Assembly: GCA_045106455.1 (NCBI GenBank)
Contig: JBGCEL010000004.1
Span: forward strand, 6,434-70,433
From: Gammaproteobacteria bacterium
Lineage (GTDB): Bacteria; Pseudomonadota; Gammaproteobacteria; Steroidobacterales; JBCCMA01
Direction of reading: 5' to 3'
DNA length: 64,000 nt
The notes under the pieces were generated by a model, which was given only the letters and a program-made list of their open reading frames with translations, did not search any database and was not told where the DNA came from. Every line of letters begins with the position of its first letter. Within the stretch, counting starts at the first letter, position 1. Made by a program: the position numbers and the translations under genes. This document shows positions 25,228-40,904 of this stretch, piece after piece.

Positions 25228-25469
25228 GAAAAAAAAATCCTGAGGCCTGAGCACGGCAGTCTTAACGTAATTCGGCCGAAGTATAACGCAACCCACGCGG
25301 TAACAATTTTCCATATTGTGCAAATTCTTGTGGCAAAGCCCGCGGCCATTGACGCCAATTTGACCTGTGTCCCAATTCCCCCACGACATTATTCCCATCC
25401 GGCCACGCACGCTTTAGATTGATGGAGATCCACCGCTAACGGCCTAACGACGTTCAAACCGACCCCTCT

Positions 25470-27227
25470 ATGACGAAAGACTGTGCAACTCGGTGGCTCT
25501 CTTTGCTTTGCAGTATGATCCCCGGCGTTCGCACCGCGTATTATGTCAATGCGGCAACACCTACTTGTGAGCAGCACATTGTCGCCAGCTACCCAGATGG
25601 CGCCACACCAAACGACGCTATTGAAGCGCTTGTACGCGACACACTGGTTGCGCAAGAGGAAATTGCTCGGCCCGTGCCGGGCGTGGCTATCCCGTCCAAA
25701 AGCTGGGCACTGGCACGACTCGTCGCGGTCGCCAACAGCGTGGGCGTCGTTGCACTTGAATTCGATGACACGACACAAGAGCAGCTAGCCGCTATCGGCC
25801 AACTCGTCGCGTGGGCTGGCCAATGGGCCACACTCGCACAGCCCGCTGCCATGGCGGTCAACCGCCACGAGCCAGACCTGAACCTGGCAAACGTGCTGCT
25901 GGAAGCCGCCACACTTGATCAAGCGCTCGCTAAGGCCTGTCGACACTTGTCCGGGAAGTTTGGCGGCACTCGTGTTGCCATCGGGCTGCACGCGGCGGAC
26001 GCCGTTTCTCTTGCCGCCGTCTCGGATCGCGCAGCATTCGACCGCCGCACGCAAAGCGCCGACCTGTATACGGTCGCGATGAATGAAGCGTTTGATCAAA
26101 GCCGTATTGTCGCCCACCCGCACACGGACACTACCGTTGCCGCCGTTAGCGTCGGCCACCGCAAGCTCGCCGATGCCGAGCGCTCCTGCGCGTGCAGCGT
26201 GCCACTTGGCACGAGCGGCGATCCGGCAGGCATCGTCACGCTGCTGCGCGCTGAATCCAAACCATTCACCGATGACGACATGGCGATGTTGCAACCGTAC
26301 GCCGCTTTGCTCGGGCACATCATCCACGTTCGCCGTCGGGCTGAGCAGGGACCTTGGCGTCGCCTGCGTCAGTCCATGCAGAGTTGGCGCAAACATTGGC
26401 TCATGGCCAATGCCCCGCGTCGCCGGATGGCGGTGGTCGGTGCCGCGGCCGTCATTGCGTTTCTGGCTCTGGGCTCTGCCCCGTATCAGGTGGGCGCACC
26501 GGCGGTTCTGGCCGGCACTTCGGAGCGCACCCTCGCCGCTCCGGTGGACGGTTACTTAAGCGAGGTGCACGTGCGCCCCGGCGCACGCGTTGCGAGTGGT
26601 CAAATTTTAGCCACGCTCGACCCGGCGCCACTGGAACGCCAACGCCGACAGTTGCAGGGCCAGCGTAGCCAACTCAACGGCGAGTACAACGTCGCGCTGG
26701 GCAAATTAGACGGTGCCGCGGCCCGCATTTTGCAGTCTCAACTCGCCCAAACTCATGTCCAGATCGAACATCTGGATGCGCAGCTCTCAAGACTCAATAT
26801 CACGGCGCCATTCGACGGCCTGGTTCTTGATGGCGATCTGATGCACGCCGCGGGCGGCCCCGTCGCACTCGGCGACACCCTTTTCCGACTGACCCCGAAC
26901 GGGGGCTATCTGGTGCGCTTGCACGTCTCGGCGAGCGACGTCGAAGCGATTGGCATTGGCGCACGCGGCCGCCTAAAACTAGCGGCACTGCCCAATGCGC
27001 AGCTGGACATTGAAGTGGTGCGAATTAACGGCATCGCACAAACCGTTGACGGCCGCAGCGTGCTGGAGATGGAAGCCACCGTACACGGCAATCAGGACTA
27101 TCTGCGCCCCGGCATGAAAGGCGTTGCACGGCTCGATGCGGGGCACGCCCGAGTTCTGTGGATCTGGACGCATTCAATTTGGCAACGCATGAAGCTCTGG
27201 TTGTGGCGCTTCAGCCCGGTGGCATAA
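25470..27227 (+). CDS. GAF-domain / TM / HlyD-type periplasmic adaptor fusion protein
   Basis: The cytoplasmic N-half ends in a typical GAF C-terminus (SVPLGTSGDPAGIVTLLRAESKPFTDDDMAMLQPYAALLGHII). One TM helix (MAVVGAAAVIAFLALGSAPY). Adaptor motifs: PVDGYLSEVHVRPGARVASGQILATLD, a coiled-coil hairpin, and ITAPFDGLVLDGDL. Confidence 0.7.
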   Translation: MTKDCATRWLSLLCSMIPGVRTAYYVNAATPTCEQHIVASYPDGATPNDAIEALVRDTLVAQEEIARPVPGVAIPSKSWALARLVAVANSVGVVALEFDDTTQEQLAAIGQLVAWAGQWATLAQPAAMAVNRHEPDLNLANVLLEAATLDQALAKACRHLSGKFGGTRVAIGLHAADAVSLAAVSDRAAFDRRTQSADLYTVAMNEAFDQSRIVAHPHTDTTVAAVSVGHRKLADAERSCACSVPLGTSGDPAGIVTLLRAESKPFTDDDMAMLQPYAALLGHIIHVRRRAEQGPWRRLRQSMQSWRKHWLMANAPRRRMAVVGAAAVIAFLALGSAPYQVGAPAVLAGTSERTLAAPVDGYLSEVHVRPGARVASGQILATLDPAPLERQRRQLQGQRSQLNGEYNVALGKLDGAAARILQSQLAQTHVQIEHLDAQLSRLNITAPFDGLVLDGDLMHAAGGPVALGDTLFRLTPNGGYLVRLHVSASDVEAIGIGARGRLKLAALPNAQLDIEVVRINGIAQTVDGRSVLEMEATVHGNQDYLRPGMKGVARLDAGHARVLWIWTHSIWQRMKLWLWRFSPVA

Positions 27228-29351
27228 ATGCACGCAACCCACACACCCACGCCAACTACCTTTACGCCGTGCCTGACACGCGATGCCAGCGTGCATCGTC
27301 ACAGTTATCGCGGTACGCCGTGGTACATCGTGCACGACGGCATGACCGGACGTAGCCTTCATTTGGCCGCCGGTGCGTGGCGCGTTATCGACGCGATGGA
27401 CGGGCGCCGTTCGCCAGAGGAAATACTCGCGTACTTGCAACGCAACGGTGCACCGGTGCAGGCGAACGATGTGCACAGCGTCTGCGCCGAGTTACTGCGC
27501 GCCGGTCTCCTGCAAGGGACGACTTGTGAACAGGCGGATTCGCTGCAACTGGCAAGCCAGCCGCCCCCCCGCTGGAAACAGTGGCTAACCTCCCCACTTT
27601 CTATTCGCCTGCCGCTGCTTAACCCGCAAGTCTGGCTCGACAAACGTATTGCCAACGTAAGGCCCCTGTTCACGTCCACCACGCTGTGGCTGTGGCTGTC
27701 CGTCGTGATCACGGCCTGCTTTATGGCCGTCAGTCACCAAAACGAGCTGACCGAACGCGTCGCCTCGACCGTGATCAGCCCGTACGGCGTCATCCTGTTT
27801 TTGAGCGTTTACGCAGTAATGAAGTCACTGCACGAACTCGCCCATGCGTTTAGCATCCGGGCCTTCGGTGGCGCCGTCAACGAAATGGGCCTGGTGTTTC
27901 TGGTGTTCATGCCGGTGCCCTACGTCGATGCGGCCGCTGCCACCACGTTTGTCAACAAACGCCAGCGTATGCTCGTGAGCGCGTCGGGCATCATGGTAGA
28001 GGCATTTATTGGCGCGATCGCGCTGATACTCTGGACCAAAATCGAGCCCGGCGTGGTACGCGAAATCTGTTTCGCGGCGCTCATTATCGGTGGCGTCTCG
28101 ACGCTTTTGTTCAACGGCAATCCGTTGCTGCGCTTTGACGGCTACTACGTCTTAAGCGACGCTCTGGAAATACCAAATCTCGCCACCCGCTCGCGCCGCT
28201 ATTTGCACTATGCGATACAGCGGTACATGTTGCGCATGAAAGACGCTATTACTCCGGTTGTCACGCCCTCCGAACGCCTTTGGTTTGTGCTGTACGGCGT
28301 GCTGTCATCCATTTACCGTCTGATCATCCTTGCATTCATTGTCTGGTTTGTATCGCGCCAGGTGCCGTTGGTCGGCTACGCACTGGGCGCCTGGGTGTTT
28401 GTGTCGCAGTTGTTGCTACCAGCATTGCGTGGGTTTACCAGCGTCGTGACGCGGGCGCGCAACGCCACCAACTCGCGGCAAGTGTTATCCCGACTTAGCG
28501 CTACAACGCTCGCCTGCGGTGTCGTGACATTCGGCTTGCCAATGCCGGCGTGGAGCAGCGCTGAGGGCGTGATCTGGATGCCGCCAGAGGCGCAGGTTCG
28601 GGCACCCGTTGACGGCACGGTGGCCACAACACTGCTGGGCGACGGGACCAGCATCGTGCCCGAACAAGCCATTGTGCAGCTCGAAAGCCCGTCGCTTGTG
28701 AATGACGCGCGCGTGATAGCCGAACAGCTCAATGAAGTCCGCGCCCGCCAAAACCTTGCTCTGTTTCGCGATCGCAGCGCACTACGCAGCGTGGCTGAAA
28801 ACCTGCACCAGACCGAAATGCGTCTGACAGAAGCCCAACAGAAAGTACGTTCACTAACGCTAAAGAGTCCGGTCGCCGGTGCGCTGCATTTTTTCGATGA
28901 GAACACGCTCGCCGGGCGCTACGTGCGCAAGGGCGAGGTTCTCGCGTACGTGCGCGATGATCAGGCGCCTATTGTGCGCGTGGTCGTGAAACAAACGCAG
29001 ATCGAAAAACTACGCGACCCGAATACGAATGTTCGCGTGCTCATACCCGGTTATTTGGATCGGCAGTTCGCCGCCACTTTGGTGCAAGAGGTTGGGGCCA
29101 CGACTAACACGCTACCCAGCGCCGCATTGGGTAGCGCGGGCGGCGGCCGCATCGCCACAAATCTGACCGATGAACACCGTCGCACAGCGGCCGAGGACGT
29201 ATTTATCCTCGATGTCCAGCTGGCACCGAACGCACCCGACGTGGCGATCGGCACGCGCGTCTACCTACGCTTCGACTACGCCCCGGCTCCGTTGGCTCAG
29301 CAAATGCTGCGCAGCCTGCGCCAGCTCACGCTCGGTGGCAGCCGTGCGTAA
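27228..29351 (+). CDS. PqqD-like domain / site-2-protease (M50) membrane domain / HlyD-type adaptor tri-fusion
   Basis: TAAATG junction with the upstream gene. N-terminal WYIVHDGMTGRSLHLAAGAWRVIDAMDGRRSPEEILAYL...LLRAGLL is PqqD/RRE-like. Polytopic region carries HELAH (HExxH, 27831-27845) and NGNPLLRFDG (S2P NxxPxxxxDG, about 28113-28142). C-terminal adaptor region (VRAPVDGTV..., coiled coil, LKSPVAGAL). Confidence 0.75.
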   Translation: MHATHTPTPTTFTPCLTRDASVHRHSYRGTPWYIVHDGMTGRSLHLAAGAWRVIDAMDGRRSPEEILAYLQRNGAPVQANDVHSVCAELLRAGLLQGTTCEQADSLQLASQPPPRWKQWLTSPLSIRLPLLNPQVWLDKRIANVRPLFTSTTLWLWLSVVITACFMAVSHQNELTERVASTVISPYGVILFLSVYAVMKSLHELAHAFSIRAFGGAVNEMGLVFLVFMPVPYVDAAAATTFVNKRQRMLVSASGIMVEAFIGAIALILWTKIEPGVVREICFAALIIGGVSTLLFNGNPLLRFDGYYVLSDALEIPNLATRSRRYLHYAIQRYMLRMKDAITPVVTPSERLWFVLYGVLSSIYRLIILAFIVWFVSRQVPLVGYALGAWVFVSQLLLPALRGFTSVVTRARNATNSRQVLSRLSATTLACGVVTFGLPMPAWSSAEGVIWMPPEAQVRAPVDGTVATTLLGDGTSIVPEQAIVQLESPSLVNDARVIAEQLNEVRARQNLALFRDRSALRSVAENLHQTEMRLTEAQQKVRSLTLKSPVAGALHFFDENTLAGRYVRKGEVLAYVRDDQAPIVRVVVKQTQIEKLRDPNTNVRVLIPGYLDRQFAATLVQEVGATTNTLPSAALGSAGGGRIATNLTDEHRRTAAEDVFILDVQLAPNAPDVAIGTRVYLRFDYAPAPLAQQMLRSLRQLTLGGSRA

Positions 29352-29400
29352 GACCTTCACACACATAACGCTCCGCCAGAACACTCTGAGAAACACCACG

Positions 29401-30807
29401 ATGCATCAGTCATTTTTCGCCCCACTCGTTTGCGCCATCATGACCGTTGCTGTGGGCAGCACAACGCTTGCCGACGAGTTCGATGCGCACACCCTGAACT
29501 GCGTGATCCTGCCGGACGAGGTCGTCGACATCAGCAGCTCGGTGCCCGGTGTGCTCGAGCAAGTATTGGTGGAGCGCAGCGATAAGATTCAAAAGGGCCA
29601 GGTGCTGGCACGGTTGGAGGCAAGCGTAGAACAGGCGGTCACAGCGTTGGCGGAAGCACGTGCCACGGCCATCTCTGAACTGCGACTACGCCAGACCGAG
29701 CTCGGCTACGATGTTCAGCATCGTGATCGACTGTCTGAATTACAGCAACGCCATGTCGCATCATCGCAATCTTACGAAGACGCGCAGCGCACGGCAGAAG
29801 CCGCGCGCTGGCGACTCAAACTTGCCGAGGAGCGGCGCGAAGAGGCGCAGCTGGATCAACGCCGTGTCGCCGCCCTGCTCGCACAAAAGACCATTCGCAG
29901 TCCCATCGACGGCGTCGTTATCGCGCGGCATCACTCGGTGGGTGAACATGTTAATAGCGAGGCCGTGGTAACGGTCGCCAGGCTCGACCCGCTGCGGGTA
30001 GAGGTGCTTACGCCGATTGACATGTTCGGCAAAATTCAGCCGGGCATGCTGATGGACGTGCGTGCTGAGATCGACCCACAGACGCGGCACACGGCCGAAG
30101 TCGTGGCCGTGGACCCGGTAGCCGATGCCGGCAGCGGCATGTTTGCCGTTGAGCTCACGTTGCCCAACCCGAATAACGCGCTGCCTGCCGGCATCAAGTG
30201 TTACAGCGAACTGAGCCCAGGCGAGCAACCCTCGCCGACCGCCGCGCCCGCATCCACGGTGGCAGATGCACCCAACCCTGTGACGCCCTCGCCCACCCCC
30301 GTGATCACGGCAAACTTTGATGCCAGCGAACTGTGCCGTGTCTTTCCGGCTGTGACCGAACCCGAATCCATCTCGCGCTTGATGCGCACTGCGGTTGTGC
30401 TGGGTGGACGCGCGCAGAAAATACGCGCCGATGTTGCGGTAGCGAACGGCTACATTGTTGCCTCGCCCCGAGCCGACGCAGCGCAGCTTGAGCAGTGGCA
30501 AGAAACCTTAGGCGCGGCGGGCGAAAACGACACCGCCGTAATGCAACGCGGCGATTTTCGTCAGCGACTGACGATGGGCACCTACAACGGACCGCGCTCG
30601 GCAGAGCGCCGTCGCGATCAAATTGCCGCGCTTGGCGTAAGCGCAGAGGTGCTGCCACGCATGCGCAGCGCCACGGCCTGGAAGATTGAGGTGCAGCTTC
30701 CACAGCCGCTGCCAGCGCCAACCGGCACCCCGCCGCTGGCCGCCTTCATGGAACGCTTTAACAGCGAAGCCGTGCCGTGTGCATCCATTCGCGCGGCGAG
30801 CCTCTAA
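29401..30807 (+). CDS. membrane-fusion (RND/HlyD-type) periplasmic adaptor with Pro-rich linker and C-terminal SPOR-like domain
   Basis: Start at ATG 29401 (signal/anchor MHQSFFAPLVCAIMTVAVGSTTLA). Adaptor motifs VVDISSSVPGVLEQVLVERSDKIQKGQVLARLE and IRSPIDGVVIARH. PSPTAAPASTVADAPNPVTPSPTP linker. The C-terminal RLTMGTYNGPRSAERRRDQIAALGVSAEV is SPOR-like. The track start 29170 is an over-extension. Confidence 0.7.
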   Translation: MHQSFFAPLVCAIMTVAVGSTTLADEFDAHTLNCVILPDEVVDISSSVPGVLEQVLVERSDKIQKGQVLARLEASVEQAVTALAEARATAISELRLRQTELGYDVQHRDRLSELQQRHVASSQSYEDAQRTAEAARWRLKLAEERREEAQLDQRRVAALLAQKTIRSPIDGVVIARHHSVGEHVNSEAVVTVARLDPLRVEVLTPIDMFGKIQPGMLMDVRAEIDPQTRHTAEVVAVDPVADAGSGMFAVELTLPNPNNALPAGIKCYSELSPGEQPSPTAAPASTVADAPNPVTPSPTPVITANFDASELCRVFPAVTEPESISRLMRTAVVLGGRAQKIRADVAVANGYIVASPRADAAQLEQWQETLGAAGENDTAVMQRGDFRQRLTMGTYNGPRSAERRRDQIAALGVSAEVLPRMRSATAWKIEVQLPQPLPAPTGTPPLAAFMERFNSEAVPCASIRAASL

Positions 30808-30814
30808 CGTACTC

Positions 30815-33800
30815 ATGACACGCAAACGATCATCCAGACGGCCCGCAAACGCACTGTCGTTTGCGGTCGAGGCGCTTGAGCCGCGGCTGTTGCTGTCGGC
30901 GGACTGGGCGCTGGGCCTGGCGCCGGATGATGTGCGCGATGATCCGTTCGATCTGGATGCCGCCGCGGCCCATCGAGTGTTACGTGCACTCGGTTCTGAA
31001 GCCCCGTTGCCCGCCTCGATGGATCTGGAACATTTTATGGCACTGCAGCCGGCGACGCCGGAATTTGCCAATGATCAGTCCTTGGCAGAGAAGCCGTCGC
31101 GCACCGATTTTAGACTGCTATCCGGCGATGCCCCGCAAAGTGTTGACGACGGCTATTCGGTAAACGAAGACGAATCGATCACGTTCAACGCCGTGTGGTT
31201 CGACCCGGATTGGATCGCACGCCGTGAACTCACCATCGACAACAGCGCCAGCGCCACTGATCTCAACGACTTTCCGGTATTGATCACGCTCGACGCATCG
31301 CGTATCGACTACAGCCTTACCGAGGATGACGGCGACGATCTGCGCTTCACGGATGACGCCGGCAATCTGCTGGATTACGAGATCGAGCTGTGGGACGAAA
31401 GCGGCACGTCTTACGTATGGGTTCGAGTGGACAGCATTACGGCCGGCTCGACGACCGAGAGTATTTACATGTATTACGGCAATTCCAGCGCCGGCGAAGG
31501 GCAATCGCCCCGGGACGTCTGGGATGCCAACTATCAGCAAGTCCAGCATTTGGAGGAAACAAGCGGCAACTACGATGATTCCACCGCCAATGGTGTTGAC
31601 ATCAGTCTTAGCGGCGGCGACCCCCACGGCGACGACATGTTCATCGGTCCCGCCCATGCTTTTGACGGCACCAACGAACTCGACAGCCAACCTGAAGCAC
31701 TCGATGACAGTCGCGCTGCCGGCACAATTTCCATGTGGGTGGAATTTGATGAGCGCTCCGGCGTGATCAACCTGCTGACCTCGGACGTCGCGCGCGATCA
31801 AGCGATTTGGACTGACGACGGTACGTTTCACGTAGCAATGGCCACGAACTTGTTTACCTTTAGTAACCTGTCCGGAGGGTCGATCGAAAACGGCTGGAAT
31901 CAGGTCGTATTCACTTGGGACAGCGTCACCGGCGAACAGGCGCTTTACGCCAACGGCCTATTGGTCGATCAGGTATCGGTGGGCGCATGGGACCCGGATG
32001 GCGTGGACGGCAACACCATCAACATCGGTGGCGCCGCCGACGCCTTTCTGGGCTTTTTTCCCGAGCGCGACGGCCTCCAGGGCGGCATCGATGAAATACG
32101 CGTGTCCGACGTGGCGCGCTCGGCCGATTGGGTGGCCGCACAGTTCGCCACCATCAACGACAATTTTATTAGCTATGGTGCCGAAGAAGGGGCTGCCCGC
32201 GGCGTGCTGGAAAACGACACCGATGCCGAGAACGATGTGCTGGCCGCGGTCCTTGAAACCGGTCCGAGCAATGCCGCATCGTTTACGCTGTTTGCCGACG
32301 GCAGTTTCGAATACACGCCGCAGGCCAATTTCGTCGGCACCGACTCGTTTACCTACCGCGCCGATGACGGCAGCAGTCTCTCGGCGGCCGCGGCGACGGT
32401 CACCATCACCGTCAACGCGGTGAACGACGCCCCGACGTTCACGCTTGGCGGCGCACAGAACGTGAACGAAGATGGCGGTGGACAGAGTGTGGCGAATTTC
32501 TCCGTCGCCTCTGCGGGAGGCGGCGCTGATGAGTCGGGCCAAACGTTTACGTACATCGTCACCGGCGACAACCCGGGCCTGTTTTCGGTAGCACCGAGTA
32601 TTGATGCGGACGGCACACTTACCTACACGCTGGCACCTAACGCCGTTGGCAGCGCCAACCTGACCGTGCAGATGTCCGATTCCGGTGGCACGGCCAATGG
32701 CGGTAGTGACGCCGCTGTCGCGGAAAACTTTGTGATCAACGTTGCTCCCGTAAACGACGCACCTTCGGCCACGTTACTTGGCAACCAAACGGTCGTCGAG
32801 AATGCCGGCCCGCAGGCAGTGGCAAACTTTGCCGCCGGTTTTACGGGTGGTGGCGCGGATGAGAGCGGGCAAAACTTGTCTTATACGGTCATAACCGGTT
32901 TTCCCGCGCTGTTCAGCGCTGCTCCGGCCATCTCTCCCGACGGCACGCTGACGTTCACATTTGCCGACGGGATGTCTGGCTCCACCACGGTGGACGTGAT
33001 TGTCAGGGACGATGGGGGCACTGCGAATGGCGGTCAAGACACCTCTACCACCTACACCTTCACTCTGACCGCGACGCCGGCGTCGGTACCGCCGACGGCG
33101 CTGAACATGGATCAGACACTCAGCTACATTGAAGACAACACGCTCGACCTCGCGAACATCATTGTCAGCGACGGCGATGCCGGCGATGTGATTACCGCAA
33201 CGCTCACGCTGGCCGATCCATTGGCAGGTAGTTTGAGCACGCTCAGCGGCGCAGGCGAAACGTACGTAGCGGCCACGGGACGCTGGCGCATCGTGGGCAC
33301 GCAAGCCGAAGTGAACACCGCACTCGCCAACGTCACGTTCGTCCCGGCTGCCAACTACGCGCTGGATACGAGCATTGCAGTGAATATTCAAGATGCGGAC
33401 GGAACCGGCCCTGCGGATGGGCTGATCGAGCTTAACGCCCTGGCCGTTAACGATGCGCCCTCCGCAACGCTCGCAGGCGACGTCAACGTTTTGGAGAACT
33501 CAGGACCACAAACCATCGCCGGATTTGCGGTTGGATTTGTCGGTGGCGGTACTGATGAGGCCGGTCAAGCACTCACTTATATAGTGAGCGCTGATCAGGT
33601 CAACATGTTTAGCAGCGGCCCGGTGATTTCCTCGGACGGCACCCTGAGCTTCACCACCGCGGACAACGTTACCGGCAGTGCAACCGTTCGCGTGCGCGTG
33701 ATCGACGATGGCAACACCGCCAATGGCGGGCAAAATCAGTCGGTCGACTACACGTTCAATATCATCATCAATGATCGGCCCGATGCACCGACGACCACCA

Positions 33801-36550
33801 ACATGAACCAAGTCGTGCTGTATACCGAAGACGGCGGCCCGGTCGACTTTGCGGACATGGTGGTGAGCGACGACGATCCGGGCGAGACGATTACCGCAAC
33901 GCTAACACTCGCTGATCCCACAGCCGGCGTGTTGACCACGCTCAGCGGTTCGGGCGAGACCTACAATGCCGTTGCCGGTCAGTGGCAAATCACCGGCAAC
34001 GCAGCCACCGTGAATGCGGCGCTTGCCAATCTATCGTTCGCGCCCGGTGCAAACTACGCGCTCGATACGAGCATCAACGTGCGTATTGTCGACGCCGCCG
34101 GCACTGGCCCGTCCGACGGAACGATCGCGCTGCAGGCGATCGCCATCAACGATACACCCCAGGCCATCTTTGCCGGCGATATTGCCGTGGACCAGAACGC
34201 CGGAGCTCAAACTTTTGCAGGCTTCGCGACACCGTCCCCCGGTGGTGGCACAGATGAACTCGCACAAACATTTACCTATACCGTCACCGTGGATAACGGC
34301 GCTTTATTTAGCGTTGCGCCCGCCATCACGCCCGACGGTACGCTCACGTTTACGGCCGCGGACAACACTTCCGGCAGCACCACGGTACGCGTGCGCGTCA
34401 CCGATAGCGGCGACACCGTCAATGGCGGTCAAGACCAGTCGATCGAATATGTGTTCCAAATTGACATCGGCGCACCCACTGCGACCAACTTGAATCAGGT
34501 CGTCAACTACATTGAAGACGGCGACCCGGTTGGGTTTGATGCCATTGTCGTAAGCAATGCTGCCCCGGATGAAACCATTACAGCGACACTCAGCCTGAGC
34601 GATCCGGCCGCCGGATCGCTGTCCACTGCAAGCGGTTTGGGCGAGACATTGACCACCTCAGGACAGTGGCGAATCACCGGCACCGTCGCACAGGTCAACG
34701 CCGCACTTGCCGACGTCACGTTTACGGCTGCGAACAATTACGCACAAGACTTGAGCATTGTCGTGCGCATCACCGATGCGGCCGGAAACGGGCCTGCTGA
34801 TGGTTTGCTGGCCCTCCAGGCAACCGCCGTCAATGATGCACCACTGGCAAGCCAGCTCAATCAAATCCAGAATTTTCTGGAAGACACCATTGACGTGGCG
34901 CTCAACGACATTGTGGTCAGTGATGTTGACGCCGGCGACGTTGTTTCTGCCACGTTAACCCTGGACAACCCGGCGGCAGGACAGCTGTCGAGCTCGAGTG
35001 GCAACGGCGAATCCTATGACGCACGCAGCGGCACCTGGCGCGTCAGTGGTAGCACGGCGCAAGTGAGTGCCGCCCTGGCCGCTGTCGTGTTCGAACCGCT
35101 GAATGATTTTGCCGGCAGTGTCAGCGTACGCACACAGATTGTGGATCAAGACGGTGCCGGGCCCGATGCCGGCGTCATTACTCTGCAGGCCACGGCCGTA
35201 AACGATGCACCAACCGTCGCCGTTTCCGGCGATTTGGTGGTTGACGAAGACGCCCCGGCCCAACGCATAGCCGGCTTTGCAAACGTGCTAGACAACGGCG
35301 GCGCGGACGAGAGCGGTCAAACCATCGTCTACAGTCTCAGCACCGACAATGAAGATTTATTCCGGGTCGCACCCTCCATCAGCGAGACGGGCGAACTCCA
35401 TTACGAGCTTGCCGCCAACGCCAACGGCACCGCCAACATCACCGTCGTGGCGCGCGATGATGGCGGTCGCGACAACGGCGGCGTCGACACGGCTCCTACA
35501 CAGCAGTTCGTGATTCAGGTCAATCCTGTCAACGACGCGCCGGAAGCAACCAGCCAGTTTGTGGTCGCGCCGCCCTCTGGCATTGTGGTGCTGTCAGCGG
35601 CTTCGTTCGGATTTACCGATCCCGCCGATGGCGATACCTTCGAAGGCGTATTTATTACAAGTTTGCCAGCGCAAGGCGAACTGTTGCTCGACGGTCAACC
35701 CGTGGCCGCCGGCGCGTTCGTTTCGGCCGCCGATCTTGTCGCAAATCGGCTGTCGCTGTCGTCGTTTGCCATACCCGGCGATAGCCTGCTACTGAGTTTC
35801 GATTTTCTAGTCCGTGACTCGGGTGGTACCGCCGATGGCGGCACCGACGTGGCGGTCAAGACCAGCACGATTACGATATCTGTCGACGTACCCAAGACGG
35901 ACGGCACCACGAACACAACACCAGCCGTGATCTCAGAAGCCGACGCCTCGGCCGACACGACCACCGCAACGGTCGTCAGCGACGCGGATCAGTCGACCGA
36001 TGAACAGCGGTCTGCTCCCGCGATCGACCTGAGCACGCCGGCAAGCCCTGCAACCCTTGCGCCCACGGTCGCCGTCACAACGCCGGTGACGAGCCTGCTC
36101 GAGATTCCCCAAGCCGCCGATGCAACCCAAGCGGCGAAGACTTTCAGTCCGGCGGTATCGCGTGTGCTGGTTTCACTGCTCGAAAATGTCCGCTCCGGCA
36201 TTGGCGATGCCACTGTCATCCAGACCACGGCCACCACGACGCTTGCGGCCGTCACCGAGATACTCGTGGAGCAACTTAGCGACCTGCGCGACGAAACCGG
36301 CGCCGAGCAGGCCTCGGAGGAACTGGTCATCATGCAGTCCAGCGCGGTGGCCTTCGGCTTGTCGGTAGGCTACGTCTCCTGGTTGCTGCGTGGCGGTGTG
36401 TTGGTCAGCAGCATGCTTACCTCCCTGCCGGCCTGGCGCTTTATTGATCCATTGCCGATTTTCTCGGGCGTACGACAAGGTGACGAGGACGAAGAGTCGT
36501 TGCAGGATATCGTCAGCGCCGACGAGCACGACACAGGACCACAAGCGTGA
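30815..36550 (+). CDS. 1911-aa repeat adhesin-like protein: LEPR-XLL N-terminus, DUF2341 + LamG-like, about 100-aa VNDAP-delimited repeats, C-terminal membrane anchor
   Basis: ATG 30815 lies 8 nt after the upstream stop. N-terminus MTRKRSSRRPANALSFAVEALEPRLLLSAD. DUF2341-like block (RRELTIDNSASATDLNDFPVLITLD...YVWVRVDSI...IYMYYGN). LamG-like block (...IDEIRVSDVARSADWVAAQF). Ten repeat modules follow. C-terminal hydrophobic segment AVAFGLSVGYVSWLLRGGVLVSSMLTSLPAW, then an acidic tail. Confidence 0.8.
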   Translation: MTRKRSSRRPANALSFAVEALEPRLLLSADWALGLAPDDVRDDPFDLDAAAAHRVLRALGSEAPLPASMDLEHFMALQPATPEFANDQSLAEKPSRTDFRLLSGDAPQSVDDGYSVNEDESITFNAVWFDPDWIARRELTIDNSASATDLNDFPVLITLDASRIDYSLTEDDGDDLRFTDDAGNLLDYEIELWDESGTSYVWVRVDSITAGSTTESIYMYYGNSSAGEGQSPRDVWDANYQQVQHLEETSGNYDDSTANGVDISLSGGDPHGDDMFIGPAHAFDGTNELDSQPEALDDSRAAGTISMWVEFDERSGVINLLTSDVARDQAIWTDDGTFHVAMATNLFTFSNLSGGSIENGWNQVVFTWDSVTGEQALYANGLLVDQVSVGAWDPDGVDGNTINIGGAADAFLGFFPERDGLQGGIDEIRVSDVARSADWVAAQFATINDNFISYGAEEGAARGVLENDTDAENDVLAAVLETGPSNAASFTLFADGSFEYTPQANFVGTDSFTYRADDGSSLSAAAATVTITVNAVNDAPTFTLGGAQNVNEDGGGQSVANFSVASAGGGADESGQTFTYIVTGDNPGLFSVAPSIDADGTLTYTLAPNAVGSANLTVQMSDSGGTANGGSDAAVAENFVINVAPVNDAPSATLLGNQTVVENAGPQAVANFAAGFTGGGADESGQNLSYTVITGFPALFSAAPAISPDGTLTFTFADGMSGSTTVDVIVRDDGGTANGGQDTSTTYTFTLTATPASVPPTALNMDQTLSYIEDNTLDLANIIVSDGDAGDVITATLTLADPLAGSLSTLSGAGETYVAATGRWRIVGTQAEVNTALANVTFVPAANYALDTSIAVNIQDADGTGPADGLIELNALAVNDAPSATLAGDVNVLENSGPQTIAGFAVGFVGGGTDEAGQALTYIVSADQVNMFSSGPVISSDGTLSFTTADNVTGSATVRVRVIDDGNTANGGQNQSVDYTFNIIINDRPDAPTTTNMNQVVLYTEDGGPVDFADMVVSDDDPGETITATLTLADPTAGVLTTLSGSGETYNAVAGQWQITGNAATVNAALANLSFAPGANYALDTSINVRIVDAAGTGPSDGTIALQAIAINDTPQAIFAGDIAVDQNAGAQTFAGFATPSPGGGTDELAQTFTYTVTVDNGALFSVAPAITPDGTLTFTAADNTSGSTTVRVRVTDSGDTVNGGQDQSIEYVFQIDIGAPTATNLNQVVNYIEDGDPVGFDAIVVSNAAPDETITATLSLSDPAAGSLSTASGLGETLTTSGQWRITGTVAQVNAALADVTFTAANNYAQDLSIVVRITDAAGNGPADGLLALQATAVNDAPLASQLNQIQNFLEDTIDVALNDIVVSDVDAGDVVSATLTLDNPAAGQLSSSSGNGESYDARSGTWRVSGSTAQVSAALAAVVFEPLNDFAGSVSVRTQIVDQDGAGPDAGVITLQATAVNDAPTVAVSGDLVVDEDAPAQRIAGFANVLDNGGADESGQTIVYSLSTDNEDLFRVAPSISETGELHYELAANANGTANITVVARDDGGRDNGGVDTAPTQQFVIQVNPVNDAPEATSQFVVAPPSGIVVLSAASFGFTDPADGDTFEGVFITSLPAQGELLLDGQPVAAGAFVSAADLVANRLSLSSFAIPGDSLLLSFDFLVRDSGGTADGGTDVAVKTSTITISVDVPKTDGTTNTTPAVISEADASADTTTATVVSDADQSTDEQRSAPAIDLSTPASPATLAPTVAVTTPVTSLLEIPQAADATQAAKTFSPAVSRVLVSLLENVRSGIGDATVIQTTATTTLAAVTEILVEQLSDLRDETGAEQASEELVIMQSSAVAFGLSVGYVSWLLRGGVLVSSMLTSLPAWRFIDPLPIFSGVRQGDEDEESLQDIVSADEHDTGPQA
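32420..35890 (+). repeat. ten tandem ~110-120-aa modules of three types (order A-A-B-A-B-A-B-B-A-C) within the adhesin gene
   Basis: Most junctions carry VNDAP. Type A consensus: ...ENxGxQxxxxFAxxxxGGGxDExGQxxTYxV...LFSxxPxIxxDGTLTFT...GSxxVxVxVxDxGxTANGGxD. Type B consensus: ...NxxQxxxYxEDxxxxxxxIVVSDxDxGxxITATLTLxDPxAGxLxTxSGxGETY...WxIxGxxAxVNxALAxxxF...DAxGxGPxDGxIxLxAxA. Boundaries are approximate. Confidence 0.7.
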
Positions 36551-39051
36551 AACGACCGTCAGCACGCACAATGGTAACCATCGCCATTACTTTGGTGATG
36601 CTCAGCCTGTTTTTATTCAGCACCGTGCTTGGCATGTTCCCCGACATCGAAAAGACCCGCCGTGAAGGGCGTGTGACCGTCGCTGAGCTCATGGCACTTG
36701 GCCTGATTAATGACATCGGTAACGAACGAGAAGATCGCATCGGACAAACGCTGCGTTTTGCCGTAGAGCGAAATTCTGACATCGAATCAGCCGCCGTGCG
36801 CGACGCCAGCGGCCTTGCCATTGGCACCGCCGGTGACCACGCGGGCTACTGGACCCCCATCCAAAGCGGGCAATCGAGCGTGGCGCAGATCACTGTGCCA
36901 ATCATGCGCGGGAACACACAATGGGGTTCACTCGAACTGCGTTTCCGTGAGCACCAGCGACCGGGCGTGGTGGGTATGCTTGATCGGCCTATCGTGCGCT
37001 TTGCACTGTATCTGCTCGTTGGCGGGTTCTTTGCCACCTATTTTATTTTGGGTCGCATGCTGCGCGCTTTAGATCCCACGCAGGCCGTGCCCTCGCGCGT
37101 ACGCTCAGCGCTGGACACCATAAGCGAAGGCCTCATCGCCATCGACACCAAAGGTCAGGTGATGCTTGCCAACGCCGCCTTCGCGACCCTCTGCGGGCGC
37201 GATGCCGATGCACTTGTGGGCATAAGCGTCGCAGATCTTGCGTGGGTTGGCGATGAAGACGGTCAGGTTAAGCATCCGTGGGAGCGCACGCTGCAAGACA
37301 GTCAGGCCGTTATTAACGAATCGATGACGCTCAAAGATAAAGACGGGAAGCAGCGCACGTTCCTCGTTAACTGCTCACCGGTGCTCGGCGGCAACGGCAA
37401 AGCACTTGGTGCACTGATTGGTCTTGGCGACGTTACCGAACTCGAGGAAAAAGAAATTCAGTTACGGCGCTCCAAAGAAGAGGCCGAAGCCGCCAACCGC
37501 AGCAAAAGCGAATTTTTGGCCAACATGAGTCATGAAATTCGAACGCCCATGAACGCTATTCTGGGCTTTACGAACCTGCTCAAGCGCGGCTACGCCAAGA
37601 ACGCACAGCAGCGTCAGGAATATCTGCAGACCATTGAGTCCAGTGGTTCGTTCTTGCTCGAACTTATTAACGATTTGCTGGATCTGTCCAAAATCGAGGC
37701 CGGCTCGCTGACCATGGAGACCCTCGAGTGTGAGGCGCATTTGGTCGTTCGCGACGTCTGCACGACGCTGCAGCTGCGTGCGCAGGAAAACAACGTTGAC
37801 CTCTCATTTGCCGTCACCACAGAAATACCCCAGCACATTCAGACCGACCCGACGCGTTTGCGGCAGATCGTGACAAACCTTCTGGGTAACGCCATCAAAT
37901 TCACCTCGGACGGCACCGTGGATGTCACCGTGGCACTCGATGCCGACGACCCTACCCTGCTCGCCGTGGCCGTCACCGACTCGGGCGTGGGCATGACAGA
38001 GGACCAAACGAAGGCGATTTTCGAGCCCTTCGTGCAGGCTGATTCATCCATTACGCGACGCTTTGGCGGCACGGGTCTCGGCCTGTCCATTAGCCGACGC
38101 TTCGCACGTGCACTGGGTGGCGACATTTATGTCGACAGCACGGCCGGCGTTGGCAGCACCTTCACAGCGCGGATTGCCACCGGCAATACCGAAGGTGTGC
38201 CTCGCATCTCGCCCGAAGCAGCCTCCCAGGCCGTGCACATCGAAGAGGCGGTTTCCACGTCAAGCCTGCATCTGCCCAATGCGCATGTGCTGGTGGCAGA
38301 CGACAACAAACAGAATCGCGATCTGCTGCGTCTGGTGCTGGAGGAGCACGGTTTGCGTGTGACAACCGCCGTTAATGGCGAGGAGGCCGTTGCGGCTGTG
38401 TCCGAAAGCATGTTCGACATTATATTGATGGACGTGCAAATGCCGGTAATGGACGGCTACGAGGCCACACGCGCCATACGATCCAGCGGTATCGAAGTGC
38501 CCATTATTGCCCTTACGGCTCTGCTCATTGGCGAGGCTCGAGACGCACTGCTTGAAGCAGGCTTCGACGCCTTCTTCGCCAAACCCATCGATGTAGACGG
38601 CCTGCTTGAACTTATCGCCGAGAAGCTCGGCAGCCTGCCCGCGTGCACGCTGCAGCAGACCCCGCGCGACGGGCCGACCCCGGATACCGAATCGACCGCG
38701 CCCATTGCGTCGCGTTTGCCAGTACACGACCCGCGCTACCGGGACATTGTGCAAGAATTTGTCGACCAGCTTGATGACACGATCAAACAGCTGCGCGATG
38801 CGTTTGATGTGGGCGATCACAAACGTCTGGCTGAGGTAGCGCACTATCTCAAGGGCGTTGCTGGCAGCATGGGCTATCCCGACTTCACCGCGCCTTGCAG
38901 AGATTTAGAGCACGCGGTCACCTCACGACACGATGCCAATATTCGCGCCAGCCTGAGCGTCATCGACGCACTCGCCGCGCGCGTCGTTTTGAGCGACGTC
39001 TCGGTTGCGGTGACGGACAGCCGCACAGCTTCAGTCGCAGCAGCACAATAA
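36547..39051 (+). CDS. hybrid sensor histidine kinase (2 TM, PAS, HisKA, HATPase_c, REC, HPt)
   Basis: GTG 36547 overlaps the adhesin stop (GTGA). H-box SEFLANMSHEIRTPMNAILGF. G-boxes DSGVGM and GGTGLGLSISRRFA. Receiver VLVADDNKQNRDLL...DIILMDVQMPVMDG. HPt-like AHYLKGVAGSMGY. Confidence 0.9.
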   Translation: MKRPSARTMVTIAITLVMLSLFLFSTVLGMFPDIEKTRREGRVTVAELMALGLINDIGNEREDRIGQTLRFAVERNSDIESAAVRDASGLAIGTAGDHAGYWTPIQSGQSSVAQITVPIMRGNTQWGSLELRFREHQRPGVVGMLDRPIVRFALYLLVGGFFATYFILGRMLRALDPTQAVPSRVRSALDTISEGLIAIDTKGQVMLANAAFATLCGRDADALVGISVADLAWVGDEDGQVKHPWERTLQDSQAVINESMTLKDKDGKQRTFLVNCSPVLGGNGKALGALIGLGDVTELEEKEIQLRRSKEEAEAANRSKSEFLANMSHEIRTPMNAILGFTNLLKRGYAKNAQQRQEYLQTIESSGSFLLELINDLLDLSKIEAGSLTMETLECEAHLVVRDVCTTLQLRAQENNVDLSFAVTTEIPQHIQTDPTRLRQIVTNLLGNAIKFTSDGTVDVTVALDADDPTLLAVAVTDSGVGMTEDQTKAIFEPFVQADSSITRRFGGTGLGLSISRRFARALGGDIYVDSTAGVGSTFTARIATGNTEGVPRISPEAASQAVHIEEAVSTSSLHLPNAHVLVADDNKQNRDLLRLVLEEHGLRVTTAVNGEEAVAAVSESMFDIILMDVQMPVMDGYEATRAIRSSGIEVPIIALTALLIGEARDALLEAGFDAFFAKPIDVDGLLELIAEKLGSLPACTLQQTPRDGPTPDTESTAPIASRLPVHDPRYRDIVQEFVDQLDDTIKQLRDAFDVGDHKRLAEVAHYLKGVAGSMGYPDFTAPCRDLEHAVTSRHDANIRASLSVIDALAARVVLSDVSVAVTDSRTASVAAAQ

Positions 39052-39095
39052 ATGCTGCACGCCTTATACACGGAACCGCAGGCGGAGAACTTCCA

Positions 39096-40904
39096 ATGAC
39101 AACGCGCCCAACAACGGATGGAACACTGGAGGTCGCCGCCGCGAGCAAAAGCGCCGGCGCCGACCCTAAGATTATGATCGTGGACGACGCTTCCATGACC
39201 ATCCGAATTCTGCAAACGTTTTTGGAAGATGCCGGCTATCGTCGCTTCGTGACCACCAGCGATTCGACCCAAGCCATTGAGCTGGTCGAGTCCGAGCGAC
39301 CTGATGCGTTGCTGCTGGACCTGCATATGCCAAGTGTTAGCGGCTTTGATATTTTGGAGCAAATTCGCGCGAGCTTCGACATTCGCCACACTCCCGTTAT
39401 TATTCTCACCGCCTCCGATGACGGCAACAGCAAACTAAAAGCACTGGAGCTTGGTGCTACGGACTTTTTGGCCAAGCCGGTCGATACCAGCGAACTGGCA
39501 CTGCGCCTGCGCAATACTCTGGCCACCAAAACCTATCAGGATCGACTGACGTACTACGATCCGCTCACCGATTTACCCAATCGAAAACTGCATAGCGAGC
39601 GACTCTCGCGCAGTCTCGTCCGCGCATTTCGAAGTAGACAACGCGGCGCCATGCTGCACATCAATCTCGACCGCTTTCGCCGCGTAAACTCCTCGCTCGG
39701 CCACGCTGCCGGCGACCATCTGCTGCGGCACACGGCGCAGCGACTCGATCGAATTGTGCGCCAACTCGACAACTCCGTGTCGTTGTCCATGGAACCCGGT
39801 ACACCCACGGCCGCTCGTTTGGGTGGCGACGAATTCGGAGTTCTACTGCCCACCGTCGAAAGCAACGATGCCGCCCGCGCCATTGCAGAGCAGATCCTCG
39901 GTGCCATCACCAAGCCGGTGGAATGGAAAGGCAGCGAAGTGGTGGTTACCGCCAGCATTGGCGTCGAGACGTTTCCAGACTCCGCCACCACCACGCAGCA
40001 GATTATTCGCAACGTCACGCTGGCGGCCGCTCGCGCCCGGTCGCTGGGTCGCAACCGGCATGAAGTATATTCGCCGCTGTCCGAGGCCAGCGTGTCGCAG
40101 GAAGTGCATCTTGAAAGCGATCTGCATCGCGCCCTGTCGCGCAACGAGCTGCGCTTGCACTATCAACCCAAAGTGGACCTGGCGACGGGCAATATCGGCA
40201 GCGCCGAGGCACTATTGCGCTGGGAGCACAAAACCCGCGGTCTGGTGAGTCCCAGCGAATTTATCCCGCTAGCCGAACAAACCGGTCTCATCGTGCCGTT
40301 TGGCACCTGGGTCATCCAAACCGCCTGCGCGCAAATCCGGCAGTGGTGCGATGACGGCCTGCCGCCGCTGCCGGTGGCGGTAAACGTCTCCAGCCTGCAG
40401 TTTGCCAACGGTGACCTGTTATCCATCGTGGCCGACGCCATTACCACCGCCGGTATCGCGCCTGCGCTGCTCATTTTGGAGCTCACCGAAACCGCCGTTC
40501 TAAAAAACACCGAAGAGACGATTAGCACTCTGCACGCGATTCGCTCGCTCGGGGTCAAACTGTCGCTGGATGATTTCGGAACCGGTTACTCGTCACTGTC
40601 GTATCTTGAGCGACTGCCAATCGACCAACTAAAAATCGATCGGTCGTTTGTCGAGAAAATTGAAGACGGCAACACCGCGCCCATCGTAGACGCCGTGATC
40701 GCCATGGCCAAGAGTCTCGGCATGCACACCGTGGCGGAGGGTGTCGAAGAACCCTGTCAGGTGGACTACCTCAAGGCCCGCCACTGCGATCAATATCAAG
40801 GCTTTTACTTTTCGCGCGCCGTAGACCCCGTGTCGTTCGGCAACCTGGTGGCCGAACAAATGAAGCGCGAGCGGCCGCAAGTCAGCACGGCGCAAGCACG
40901 CTAA
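39096..40904 (+). CDS. response regulator with REC-GGDEF-EAL domains (c-di-GMP turnover)
   Basis: Start re-picked at ATG 39096. REC IMIVDDASMTIRIL...LLLDLHMPSVSGFD. Intact RLGGDEFGVLL. EAL-domain motifs SAEALLRWEH and SLDDFGTGYSSLSYL. Confidence 0.9.
   Translation: MTTRPTTDGTLEVAAASKSAGADPKIMIVDDASMTIRILQTFLEDAGYRRFVTTSDSTQAIELVESERPDALLLDLHMPSVSGFDILEQIRASFDIRHTPVIILTASDDGNSKLKALELGATDFLAKPVDTSELALRLRNTLATKTYQDRLTYYDPLTDLPNRKLHSERLSRSLVRAFRSRQRGAMLHINLDRFRRVNSSLGHAAGDHLLRHTAQRLDRIVRQLDNSVSLSMEPGTPTAARLGGDEFGVLLPTVESNDAARAIAEQILGAITKPVEWKGSEVVVTASIGVETFPDSATTTQQIIRNVTLAAARARSLGRNRHEVYSPLSEASVSQEVHLESDLHRALSRNELRLHYQPKVDLATGNIGSAEALLRWEHKTRGLVSPSEFIPLAEQTGLIVPFGTWVIQTACAQIRQWCDDGLPPLPVAVNVSSLQFANGDLLSIVADAITTAGIAPALLILELTETAVLKNTEETISTLHAIRSLGVKLSLDDFGTGYSSLSYLERLPIDQLKIDRSFVEKIEDGNTAPIVDAVIAMAKSLGMHTVAEGVEEPCQVDYLKARHCDQYQGFYFSRAVDPVSFGNLVAEQMKRERPQVSTAQAR

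Follow-up and report, generated by a model that had tools for sequence, protein, structure and literature searches.

Introduction

Giant bacterial proteins are increasingly reported, from Omnitrophota and Chlorochromatium symbionts to roseobacter and rhizobial plasmids. Here we analyze the N-terminus of an adhesin-like protein of 1,911 residues encoded in a 64,000-nucleotide stretch of DNA from a member of the Steroidobacterales (Gammaproteobacteria bacterium, assembly GCA_045106455.1, contig JBGCEL010000004.1, positions 6,434 to 70,433 of the forward strand). We refer to this whole stretch as the window and give coordinates in its numbering unless a locus label (L001 and so on) precedes them. 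The N-terminus carries the LEPR-XLL motif, which is itself already known and catalogued, and we propose that a conserved envelope gene set, here called the cassette, probably treats this motif as an export and processing signal. The cassette comprises four genes on a single strand, G-M-X-H, of which X encodes a SecA paralogue. The window contains G, M and H, which appear from their sequences to be three inner-membrane proteins, each with a predicted periplasmic adaptor domain; M further combines a putative RRE (recognition element of ribosomally synthesized and post-translationally modified peptides, RiPPs) with an M50 protease.

The closest precedents for the motif are the NCBIfam entry NF012209 and a planctomycete N-terminal motif, RRLxxExLExRxLLA, which was put forward in 2004 as a novel export signal (Studholme et al., as cited in PMC8567305); the same source describes dozens of related motifs per planctomycete genome. 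Both concern the motif found in the window, placed N-terminally after a basic stretch in very long, repeat-rich extracellular proteins, although planctomycete variants (LEDRTLL...) diverge from it after the R. They differ from the account given here in being a catalogue entry and a proposal without a mechanism: no RRE-M50-adaptor cassette, or any other machinery, had been attached to them before, and LEPR-XLL is now tied to a specific and widespread gene set. LEPRxLL has also been noted on Chlorochromatium proteins of 36,806 and 20,647 residues, near TolC and SapC genes (bioRxiv 10.64898/2026.03.19.712371). A preliminary description of the window, made from its letters alone, had called the motif functionally unexplained. 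This holds for the searchable literature, which contains passing mentions and, in PMC8567305, the proposal of 2004; we found no description of the cassette or of a function for LEPR in the searchable full texts.

Among known export systems, peptidase-containing ABC exporters (colicin V CvaAB-TolC) and the M50-type RiPP leader proteases (YydH/LiaK, daptide HExxH) are comparable to this locus: the leader lies at the N-terminus and carries a short conserved motif, a domain that binds or cuts it is joined to the membrane machinery, and there are adaptors of the HlyD type and, in relatives of the window, TolC. Here, however, the cargo has 2,000-12,000 residues, there is no ABC transporter, C39 domain or double-glycine site, and the putative motor of the relatives is a SecA paralogue. 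The LapA/LapBCE/LapD/LapG system is alike in its repeat-rich giant adhesin, its HlyD-type adaptors, its operon-linked protease and its genes for cyclic di-GMP (c-di-GMP) signaling, but the present locus has no ABC transporter, its conserved targeting element is N-terminal rather than a C-terminal signal, an intramembrane M50 protease stands where LapG is a periplasmic cysteine protease, and the window cargo has a C-terminal membrane module of its own.

The accessory Sec systems of Gram-positive bacteria (SecA2, SecA2/SecY2), which handle very large serine-rich adhesins, likewise encode a dedicated SecA paralogue next to a giant adhesin whose N-terminal signal is unusual. In our case the hosts are Gram-negative, SecY2, Asp proteins and glycosyltransferases are lacking, and the paralogue is cut to about 660 residues and missing from the window operon, whereas the adaptors and the M50 protease of the cassette have no counterpart in accessory Sec. 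Finally, truncated SecA_DEAD/PPXD domains occur inside giant proteins of Omnitrophota and Actinobacteria (West-Roberts et al., bioRxiv 10.1101/2023.11.21.568195). Like X in the relatives of the window, these retain the SecA motor and preprotein-binding domains without scaffold and wing, are tied to giants with C-terminal membrane anchors and have been proposed to act in export, but there the SecA domains lie within the giant protein whereas here they form a separate cassette gene, and LEPR, M50 and HlyD are not mentioned in that work. By analogy, the window system resembles both leader-dependent adaptor/TolC export and the SecA2 export of giant adhesins, yet it belongs to neither.

Results

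The adhesin begins with an LEPR-XLL motif

The adhesin gene (30815-36550, +) starts with an ATG at 30815 and has 1,911 codons. Its translation opens MTRKRSSRRPANALSFAVEALEPRLLLSAD, and reading from this ATG gives MTRKRSSRRPANALSFAVEALEPRLLLSADWALGLAPDD, identical to the reading in the preliminary description, which had placed LEPRLLL at 30875-30895, as we confirmed on re-reading the sequence. The leader-type segment, residues 1-30 (30815-30904, +), consists of the basic stretch MTRKRSSRRP followed by FAVEALEPRLLLSAD. The curated cut-off of the NF012209 model is 17 bits; residues 16-33 of the full protein score 23.6 (E 2.6e-5), and the N-terminal fragment taken by itself reaches 27.5 (E 1.5e-6). 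The adhesin is a member of this family on both counts, a score above the cut-off and a match at the extreme N-terminus of a long repeat-rich protein, and the earlier statement that very long proteins carry LEPR-XLL as a catalogued N-terminal feature is correct. A degenerate DNA pattern for LEPRLLLSAD has one match in the window and none in 100 dinucleotide-preserving shuffles, and an N-terminal LE.R.LL motif occurs a single time in the six frames of the window.

The gene upstream ends with a TAA at 30805-30807, leaving a spacer of 7 nt before the ATG and not the 8 nt reported initially. An alternative start, TTG at 30686, was rejected: it would create an out-of-frame overlap with the upstream gene, and homologues start at a Met preceding the basic stretch. 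We accept the ATG at 30815, as originally proposed, because the position of the motif relative to the Met agrees in homologues. The closest relative of the window, locus L001, starts MARRAKSCPHADDLSFAVEPLEPRLLLAAD.

Across 139 unique homologous N-termini the consensus is a K/R-rich region followed by [PFL][LV][FL]ExLEPR[LI]L[LF]SAD, with conservation of 91% for E(-3), 87% for L(-1), 79% for P(+1), 93% for L(+4), 82% for S, 79% for A and 71% for D. The basic region, with about 4.7 K/R among the 22 residues ahead of the motif, is variable in its use of K and R and has no conserved RR; right past the D, conservation drops to background. The conserved charges in the 13-residue core, together with this abrupt boundary, are typical of a recognition or leader element, unlike a membrane-inserting h-region.

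The motif differs from classical export signals

Averaged over 9 residues, Kyte-Doolittle hydropathy peaks at 1.74 in the first 45 residues of the adhesin, and no uncharged run there is longer than 9 residues (PANALSFAV), compared to 2.4-3.2 and 16-22 residues for three Sec- or lipoprotein-type N-termini of the same window. E19, E22 and R24 fall within the would-be hydrophobic core, and aligned N-termini of cassette-linked proteins show no variation at E22, R24 and A29. We rejected a conventional Sec signal cleaved by signal peptidase I in view of this hydropathy and the conserved charges, and a lipoprotein signal (signal peptidase II) in view of the absence of cysteine, and thus of a lipobox, from the first 48 residues. 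The Tat reading was also rejected, as S-R-R-P-A-N-A is followed by E, E and R within 15 residues, no uncharged stretch comes after SRRP and the RR is not conserved.

These results bear out the claim, made in the preliminary description, that the N-terminus has no hydrophobic h-region, and no Sec signal appeared when the start was re-inspected. The companion claim, that neither an AxA site nor a lipobox is present, stands for the lipobox. Its AxA part is not absolute: L-S-A|D formally, if loosely, agrees with the signal peptidase I rule for positions -3 and -1, and its S and A are conserved at 82% and 79%, with no h-region ahead of it.

We also rejected the adhesin as a type 1 secretion substrate of the RTX or Lap type. 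Three adaptors are encoded, but NCBIfam and Pfam scans found no ABC transporter in the window operon or elsewhere in the window, no TolC-like gene was found there either, and the C-terminus of the adhesin is a membrane-type module with an acidic tail.

LEPR proteins and the cassette are neighbors in both directions

To describe the neighborhood of the motif, we anchored a genome scan on M, which belongs to a family of more than 4,900 proteins (E<=1e-10) of about 715 residues each. The scan covered 80 loci with flanks of up to 10 kb per side, 1.27 Mb in total. A LEPR-type open reading frame (ORF) lies beside the cassette in 20 of the 80 loci: 17 are on the same strand, 4-509 bp past the last cassette gene, and three are upstream or divergent. 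A strict LEPR regular expression has 14 matches in the six frames of the 1.27 Mb, each at most 65 codons from an ORF start. In 19 more loci, an N-truncated RTX-type giant ORF lies upstream of G on the same strand and ends, in 16 of the 19, within 1.5 kb of G; the N-termini of these 19 giants fall beyond the fetched DNA. Fifty-two loci could be inspected on both flanks; a LEPR ORF is present in 16 of them and a giant in another 16.

The giants upstream of G form a homologous RTX-type family, whose full-length members with intact N-termini bear the LEPR motif; the search with one upstream giant that retrieved these homologues missed the query itself. For two further loci the motif was predicted at N-termini not yet seen and then found in both. 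In L088 (Kineobactrum sediminis), a protein of 3,408 residues starting ...RLEALEPRLLLSAD is followed by G, M, the SecA-like gene and H; in L089, a protein of 4,136 residues starting ...MERMEPRLLLSGE is followed by DUF3467, G, the M50 gene, an adaptor and a TolC-like outer membrane efflux protein.

A census was also made of complete plasmid and chromid records. Thirteen such records contain a full-length M homologue, and we examined ten (Alisedimentitalea, Pseudosulfitobacter, Mesorhizobium ciceri, Rhizobium beringeri, R. johnstonii, Ensifer adhaerens, Methylosinus, Pseudohalocynthiibacter, Pontibrevibacter and Thalassospira). All ten have an ORF of 4,033 to about 12,700 residues that ends immediately before the cassette, and all ten giants open with a basic stretch and [LFYI]EPRxLL[SAN]AD. 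Two of these cassette-linked giants, of 4,033 and 10,603 residues, are named 'LEPR-XLL domain-containing protein' by the NCBI annotation pipeline PGAP. In two records, those of Alisedimentitalea scapharcae (L217, NZ_CP123586.1 183000-184395) and Rhizobium johnstonii (L231:15688 versus annotated 15826), the RefSeq start lies downstream of the in-frame motif, so that the annotated proteins are leaderless. A tblastn search of the plasmids with the short LEPR peptide gave no match, with a short query and the low-complexity filter on.

For the opposite direction, metagenome contigs were scanned with a DNA pattern blind to gene context, in which Arg was fixed as CGN, so that the sample covers motifs with CGN-encoded rather than AGR-encoded Arg. 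The scan yielded 122 matches at 120 loci; all but two lie at most 134 codons from an in-frame upstream stop and come after a basic stretch, and the ORFs they open mostly exceed 1,000 codons. Where at least 1.5 kb of upstream DNA was visible (80 LEPR genes), homologues of G, M, X or H lie upstream on the same strand in 14 and divergently in 9. This proportion, 23 of 80 or 29%, is a lower bound because cassettes downstream of C-truncated giants escape view. A profile of LEPR N-termini, run against a collection of 5.8 billion proteins, retrieved only fragments of at most 79 residues, which served as a small context sample; the cassette is present in two of its six informative loci.

A further line of evidence comes from the other end of the adhesin. 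Residues ~1810-1905 (36242-36529, +) form a conserved C-terminal module, the moderately hydrophobic AVAFGLSVGYVSWLLRGGVLVSSMLTSLPAWRFIDPLPIF followed by the acidic tail DEDEESLQDIV. Over its last ~95 residues the module follows the pattern ...GLSVGYVxWLLRGGVLxSSxLSSLPAWRFxDPLPxL... and then the acidic tail. A search with it gave 3,644 cluster representatives at E<=1e-3 (1,090 at E<=1e-10), each with the match at its very C-terminal end, and no Pfam or NCBIfam model matches it. A LEPR-type motif stands at the start of all ~21 full-length module representatives with an intact N-terminus. Three module-bearing adhesins, chosen solely for being full length, each lie in an operon like that of the window, G-M-(SecA)-H-adhesin-hybrid kinase-response regulator.

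Two arrangements emerge from these comparisons. Type A, the arrangement of the plasmid loci, consists of LEPR giant, DUF3467, G, M, SecA, H and TolC; type B consists of G-M-(SecA)-H-adhesin-hybrid kinase-REC-GGDEF-EAL. The window operon is a reduced, SecA-less variant of this conserved type B, and the LEPR motif is the sole feature common to the cargo of both types. The preliminary description had suggested that LEPR may be the recognition tag for the co-encoded adaptor/M50 machinery and had named enrichment of such neighbors as the test. The enrichment is found when the search is anchored on M as well as when it is anchored on LEPR, and, as far as gene neighborhood can tell, this strong association in both directions supports the suggestion.

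M joins a candidate leader reader to a protease and an adaptor

The gene for M (27228-29351, +) encodes three domains, delimited with NCBIfam, Pfam matches of the family and AlphaFold2/Foldseek: a PqqD-like RRE (residues ~14-95), an M50 protease (~133-436) and a membrane-fusion adaptor (~438-702). Both catalytic motifs of site-2/M50 proteases are kept, HELAH at 202-206 and NGNPLLRFDGYY at 296-307, and the residues of HExxH (H202, E203, H206) and NxxPxxxxDG (N298, P299, D304, G305) are invariant in 18 family members. Over these 18 members, Pfam detects HlyD_3 in all 18, Peptidase_M50 in 14 and PqqD in 9.

Among curated families, RiPP leader proteases come closest to M, each matched below its cut-off: daptide_HExxH (NF041824) over residues 14-410 with 161 bits against 300, and YydH/LiaK (NF058609) with 43 against 225. 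The ApyI RiPP-binding model matches residues 40-95. We rejected M as an equivalog of these proteases in view of the scores, because no small LEPR-bearing ORF was found in the 80 loci and because the candidate substrate next to M is a giant protein; a hidden Markov model search over ORFs of at least 40 residues found no conserved small ORF with a LEPR-like leader in them.

The AlphaFold2 model of M has a mean pLDDT of 79.5. A Foldseek search with the whole protein saw only the adaptor third, whose best matches are MexA, AcrA and MacA (E ~1e-12), and the fold of the N-terminal domain emerged from a separate model of residues 1-112 (pLDDT 83), with strands at 20-27, 30-37 and 43-46 and helices at 50-56, 63-72 and 79-91. 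Its best Foldseek matches are TbiB1 (5v1v, 5v1u) and 6jx3 (TM-score 0.68-0.71), lasso-peptide RREs whose structures include leader peptides, and the best PDB sequence matches of its profile are PqqD 5sxy and 3g2b (E 0.004). According to this model, M begins with a domain that folds like the RREs of leader-peptide-binding proteins, which gives the tag hypothesis a concrete candidate reader. The RRE is most likely cytoplasmic because it lies N-terminal, and the adaptor C-terminal, to the membrane domain, the adaptor being periplasmic by analogy with membrane-fusion proteins.

Most relatives add a SecA paralogue

The cassette gene X encodes a truncated SecA paralogue of ~660 residues with SecA_DEAD, the preprotein-binding domain and the P-loop but no C-terminal wing/scaffold. 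It directly follows M in 57 of the 80 loci and in most plasmid records (for example L024:12093-14084, L006:12099-14090 and L088:24423-26420, all +). X scores 354-502 bits (E ~1e-105 to 1e-150), below all SecA and SecA2 cut-offs, those for SecA2 being 725-1,100. It is absent from L001, whose M is 63% identical to that of the window, from about nine further loci and from the window itself, where tblastn found no SecA-like gene. We therefore rejected membership in the accessory Sec (SecA2) systems, for which we also saw no SecY2. The LEPR motif is unchanged between cassettes with and without the paralogue. Public annotations of X vary between 'translocase', 'DEAD/DEAH box helicase', 'preprotein translocase subunit SecA' and, in Methylosinus, 'prepilin peptidase'.

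Two further genes recur in relatives, and neither was found in the window. In ~30 of the 80 loci and 8 of the 10 plasmid records, a DUF3467 gene of ~100 residues separates the LEPR giant from the first adaptor gene (L089:22441-22719 and L213:13681-14022, both + and just upstream of G). It has no match in the PDB by sequence, we found no relevant literature, and its product might be a cargo chaperone. A TolC-family gene closes the cassette in Thalassospira, Methylosinus, L089, L035, L065, L067 and L078 (examples, all +: L220:23036-24448, L219:24924-26351, L089:27602-28996). The TolC-family genes in relatives, together with three membrane-fusion domains and the matches to MexA, AcrA and MacA, give the machine an envelope-spanning character.

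Discussion

We consider it reasonably probable that the LEPR leader is the N-terminal mark of giant surface proteins (~2,000 to >12,000 residues) that are the cargo of a dedicated, co-encoded envelope machine, being read by the RRE and removed by the M50 protease during N-to-C export. From the comparisons above we infer which domain reads the motif, whether and where it is cleaved, which way the cargo travels, through what channel and with what energy source, and what c-di-GMP contributes, as follows. The cytoplasmic RRE of M would bind LEPR while the cargo is still nascent or unfolded, and the cargo would cross the inner membrane N-terminus first, driven by the SecA paralogue of the cassette in most relatives and presumably by housekeeping SecA in the reduced variant of the window. 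The M50 domain would cut the leader off near the conserved S-A-D boundary, and the adaptor domains of G, M and H would conduct the chain outwards together with a TolC-type channel. The C-terminal module would then tether the adhesin to the cell, while the hybrid kinase and the REC-GGDEF-EAL regulator may set display or release under c-di-GMP control, with the GAF domain of G also having a regulatory role.

The motif is unchanged whether or not the SecA paralogue is present, which favors a reader that is present in all cassettes; we favor the RRE because it is the only domain there with the known job of binding short leader motifs.

A fuller version of this proposal is tentative and somewhat doubtful. 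It would make the gene set an undescribed envelope-spanning pathway for the largest bacterial proteins, in which the RRE-M50-adaptor protein reads and removes the leader, the SecA paralogue, or housekeeping SecA in reduced operons, threads the chain from N to C, the adaptors and TolC form the duct, DUF3467 acts as chaperone, the module tethers the cargo in the inner membrane and display through the duct is controlled by c-di-GMP. By analogy, such a pathway would in effect be type-1-like export run in reverse, powered by a Sec-type motor and using a leader reader of the RiPP type.

Several observations weigh against the proposed role of the leader, the weakest points being the lack of a channel or motor in the window operon and the many orphan LEPR genes. 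The window operon has no ATPase, recognized channel or TolC, so that the local genes alone cannot explain export. The link between LEPR and the cassette is clearly not obligatory in cis: the remaining 20 of the 52 evaluable M loci have neither a LEPR nor a giant gene, 57 of the 80 metagenome LEPR genes (~70%) have no cassette gene in the visible upstream DNA, eight complete LEPR ORFs with at least 3 kb of visible downstream DNA have no G, M, X or H in the whole fetched locus, and the other four of the six informative profile-selected loci have no cassette within 10 kb. Given the dozens of motifs per planctomycete genome, any dependence on a cassette there would have to act in trans or through another pathway. 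As to M, the window protein is below the Pfam thresholds for PqqD and Peptidase_M50 (for the latter with no match at E<=0.01), and its NCBIfam matches to RiPP proteases are below cut-off as well. In addition, M50 proteases cleave membrane-embedded helices, for which the glycine-containing C-terminal module is an alternative substrate, and signal peptidase I could cut at LSA|D.

A different reader is also conceivable. LEPR could be an atypical Sec signal recognized by SecA, either the cassette paralogue or, in the window, housekeeping SecA, rather than by RRE-M50, with the M50 protease clearing the leader after translocation in the manner of RseP or cutting the C-terminal module for a c-di-GMP-controlled release. 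The frequent position of X, with its intact preprotein-binding domain, directly after M fits such a scheme, as do the N-terminal location of LEPR with a basic n-region, the agreement of LSA|D with the -3/-1 rule, and the suggestion that truncated SecA domains within giant proteins aid their own export (West-Roberts et al., bioRxiv 10.1101/2023.11.21.568195). The C-terminal module is moderately hydrophobic with a helix-breaking R-G-G, a feature often seen in site-2-protease substrates, and hybrid kinase and GGDEF-EAL genes are always downstream of module-bearing adhesins. We nevertheless regard this as unlikely. The cores that SecA recognizes are hydrophobic, but LEPR conserves the charged residues E, E, R and D and nowhere exceeds 9 uncharged residues in a row, and the same motif occurs in SecA-less cassettes (the window, L001, L090, L092, L089 and Thalassospira). 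Moreover, an RRE fused to the protease would have no obvious role if the substrate were a membrane helix, and RTX-type giants without the C-terminal module still have both LEPR and the cassette.

A role in retention rather than export appears improbable. Here LEPR would be an N-terminal retention or docking element comparable to the LapA retention module, held at the inner face of an adaptor/TolC duct until the M50 protease releases the adhesin, as LapG does, upon a change in c-di-GMP. The Lap paradigm couples N-terminal proteolysis to c-di-GMP, and the operon combines a c-di-GMP turnover gene, a GAF sensor adaptor, a protease-adaptor fusion and a repeat-rich, adhesin-like cargo, all consistent with such a function. 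However, there is neither an ABC transporter nor a recognizable C-terminal type 1 signal for a C-terminus-first exit, and the C-terminal membrane module of the cargo could itself provide the tether. The RRE, most likely cytoplasmic, does not lie where a retention plug would sit, and the ~13 conserved residues of LEPR are unlike a folded plug.

We can largely dismiss the idea that adjacency only reflects the need of giants for adaptor/TolC-type genes, with LEPR a lineage marker read by an unlinked factor and RRE-M50 serving another, unseen peptide: most LEPR genes of the metagenome sample have no visible cassette, many evaluable cassettes have no visible LEPR gene and the curated families nearest to M have small RiPP peptides as substrates, but LEPR is the sole shared feature of at least two unrelated cargo classes that are both cassette-linked (RTX-type giants and module-bearing cadherin/Ig adhesins), a LEPR giant abuts the cassette in every plasmid record examined, and the 80 loci yielded no conserved small ORF of at least 40 residues with a LEPR-like leader.

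For the export and processing role proposed above, the gene set offers a candidate reader (the RRE), peptidase (M50), motor (the SecA paralogue) and duct (three adaptors and TolC), and the question is testable in cultured strains; if the proposal is true, it would constitute a new route for the surface display of adhesins. Three rules for annotation follow. Giant genes should be checked for LEPR upstream of their annotated starts; cassette genes labeled 'DEAD/DEAH helicase', 'translocase' or 'prepilin peptidase' should be renamed as SecA paralogues; and a model should be built for the C-terminal module.

Further features of the operon, its relatives and the window

The genes of the window operon (G, M, H, adhesin, kinase and regulator) are all on the + strand and tightly packed. 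The first, G (25470-27227, +; Pfam GAF_2, HlyD_3 and HlyD_D23), is predicted to encode a cytoplasmic GAF domain (residues 147-286), one transmembrane segment at residues ~320-338 by hydropathy, and a periplasmic HlyD/membrane-fusion adaptor domain. A homologue of G lies directly upstream of M in nearly all of the 80 loci.

The third adaptor, H (29398-30807, +), scores 121 bits with TIGR01730 (RND_mfp) against a cut-off of 94.9 and matches Pfam HlyD_3 and HlyD_D23. The mechanically called ORF, 29170-30807, overlaps the end of M by 182 nt. The true start is likely M77 of this ORF, the ATG at 29398 (MHQSFFAPLVCAIMTVAVG...), which restores an N-terminal membrane anchor (transmembrane segment at residues 6-24 counted from 29398). 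H has a C-terminal extension of ~200 residues with a sub-threshold SPOR/FtsN-like match at 30475-30654 (E 0.086 and 0.085), a likeness that hints at peptidoglycan binding. Long variants of H (460-500 residues) recur in L001, L009, L018, L024, L031, L046, L050 and L076.

The adhesin itself contains DUF2341 at residues 172-243 and tandem-95/Big_9/cadherin-like repeats at residues ~457-1700 (NCBIfam tand_rpt_95, 139.5 bits; Pfam Big_9, Cadherin_5 and DUF2341). At 1,911 residues it is shorter than the plasmid members, which have 4,000-12,700. The gene for the hybrid sensor histidine kinase (PAS-HisKA-HATPase-REC-Hpt by Pfam; 36547-39051, +) overlaps the stop of the adhesin gene by 4 nt, and a hybrid kinase also lies downstream of the LEPR adhesin in L001, L090, L091 and L092. 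The response regulator (39090-40904, +), whose Pfam domains REC-GGDEF-EAL point to c-di-GMP turnover, is the last conserved gene of this operon type and keeps its position in L090-L092.

Other large, secreted-looking genes of the window have no LEPR motif. They encode a GH16 and Big_12 protein of 2,070 residues (55221-61433, +), a lipoprotein-like GH16 protein of 698 residues (23314-25410, -), a G8/CEMIP beta-helix protein (9493-12291, -) and a CHAT-domain protein followed by a subtilase (16127-21413, +).

Several arrangements in the relatives deserve mention. A short, divergent H-like adaptor gene recurs 150-740 bp upstream of the LEPR gene (L215:1-17 and L229:1942-2670, both -), and the metagenome loci L098, L109, L123, L140, L142, L160 and L161 have the same layout. 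A SapC-family gene (L217:558-1355, +) stands divergent from the LEPR giant of Alisedimentitalea and echoes Cag_662 (SapC) of Chlorochromatium, which lies beside the LEPRxLL giants Cag_663 and Cag_665 (bioRxiv 10.64898/2026.03.19.712371). The Omnitrophota locus L027 consists of G, M and an ORF of >3,148 residues starting ...FEAMESRILLSAN. The metagenome contig L085 carries two module-bearing adhesins in tandem (1-504 and 14079-18791, both +), the first followed by a hybrid kinase and REC-GGDEF-EAL and the second by REC-GGDEF-EAL. LEPR genes also occur broken by, or amid, insertion sequence elements with rve and IS66 transposases (L083:2030-3738 and L084:1-5158), leaving leader fragments of 48-76 residues.

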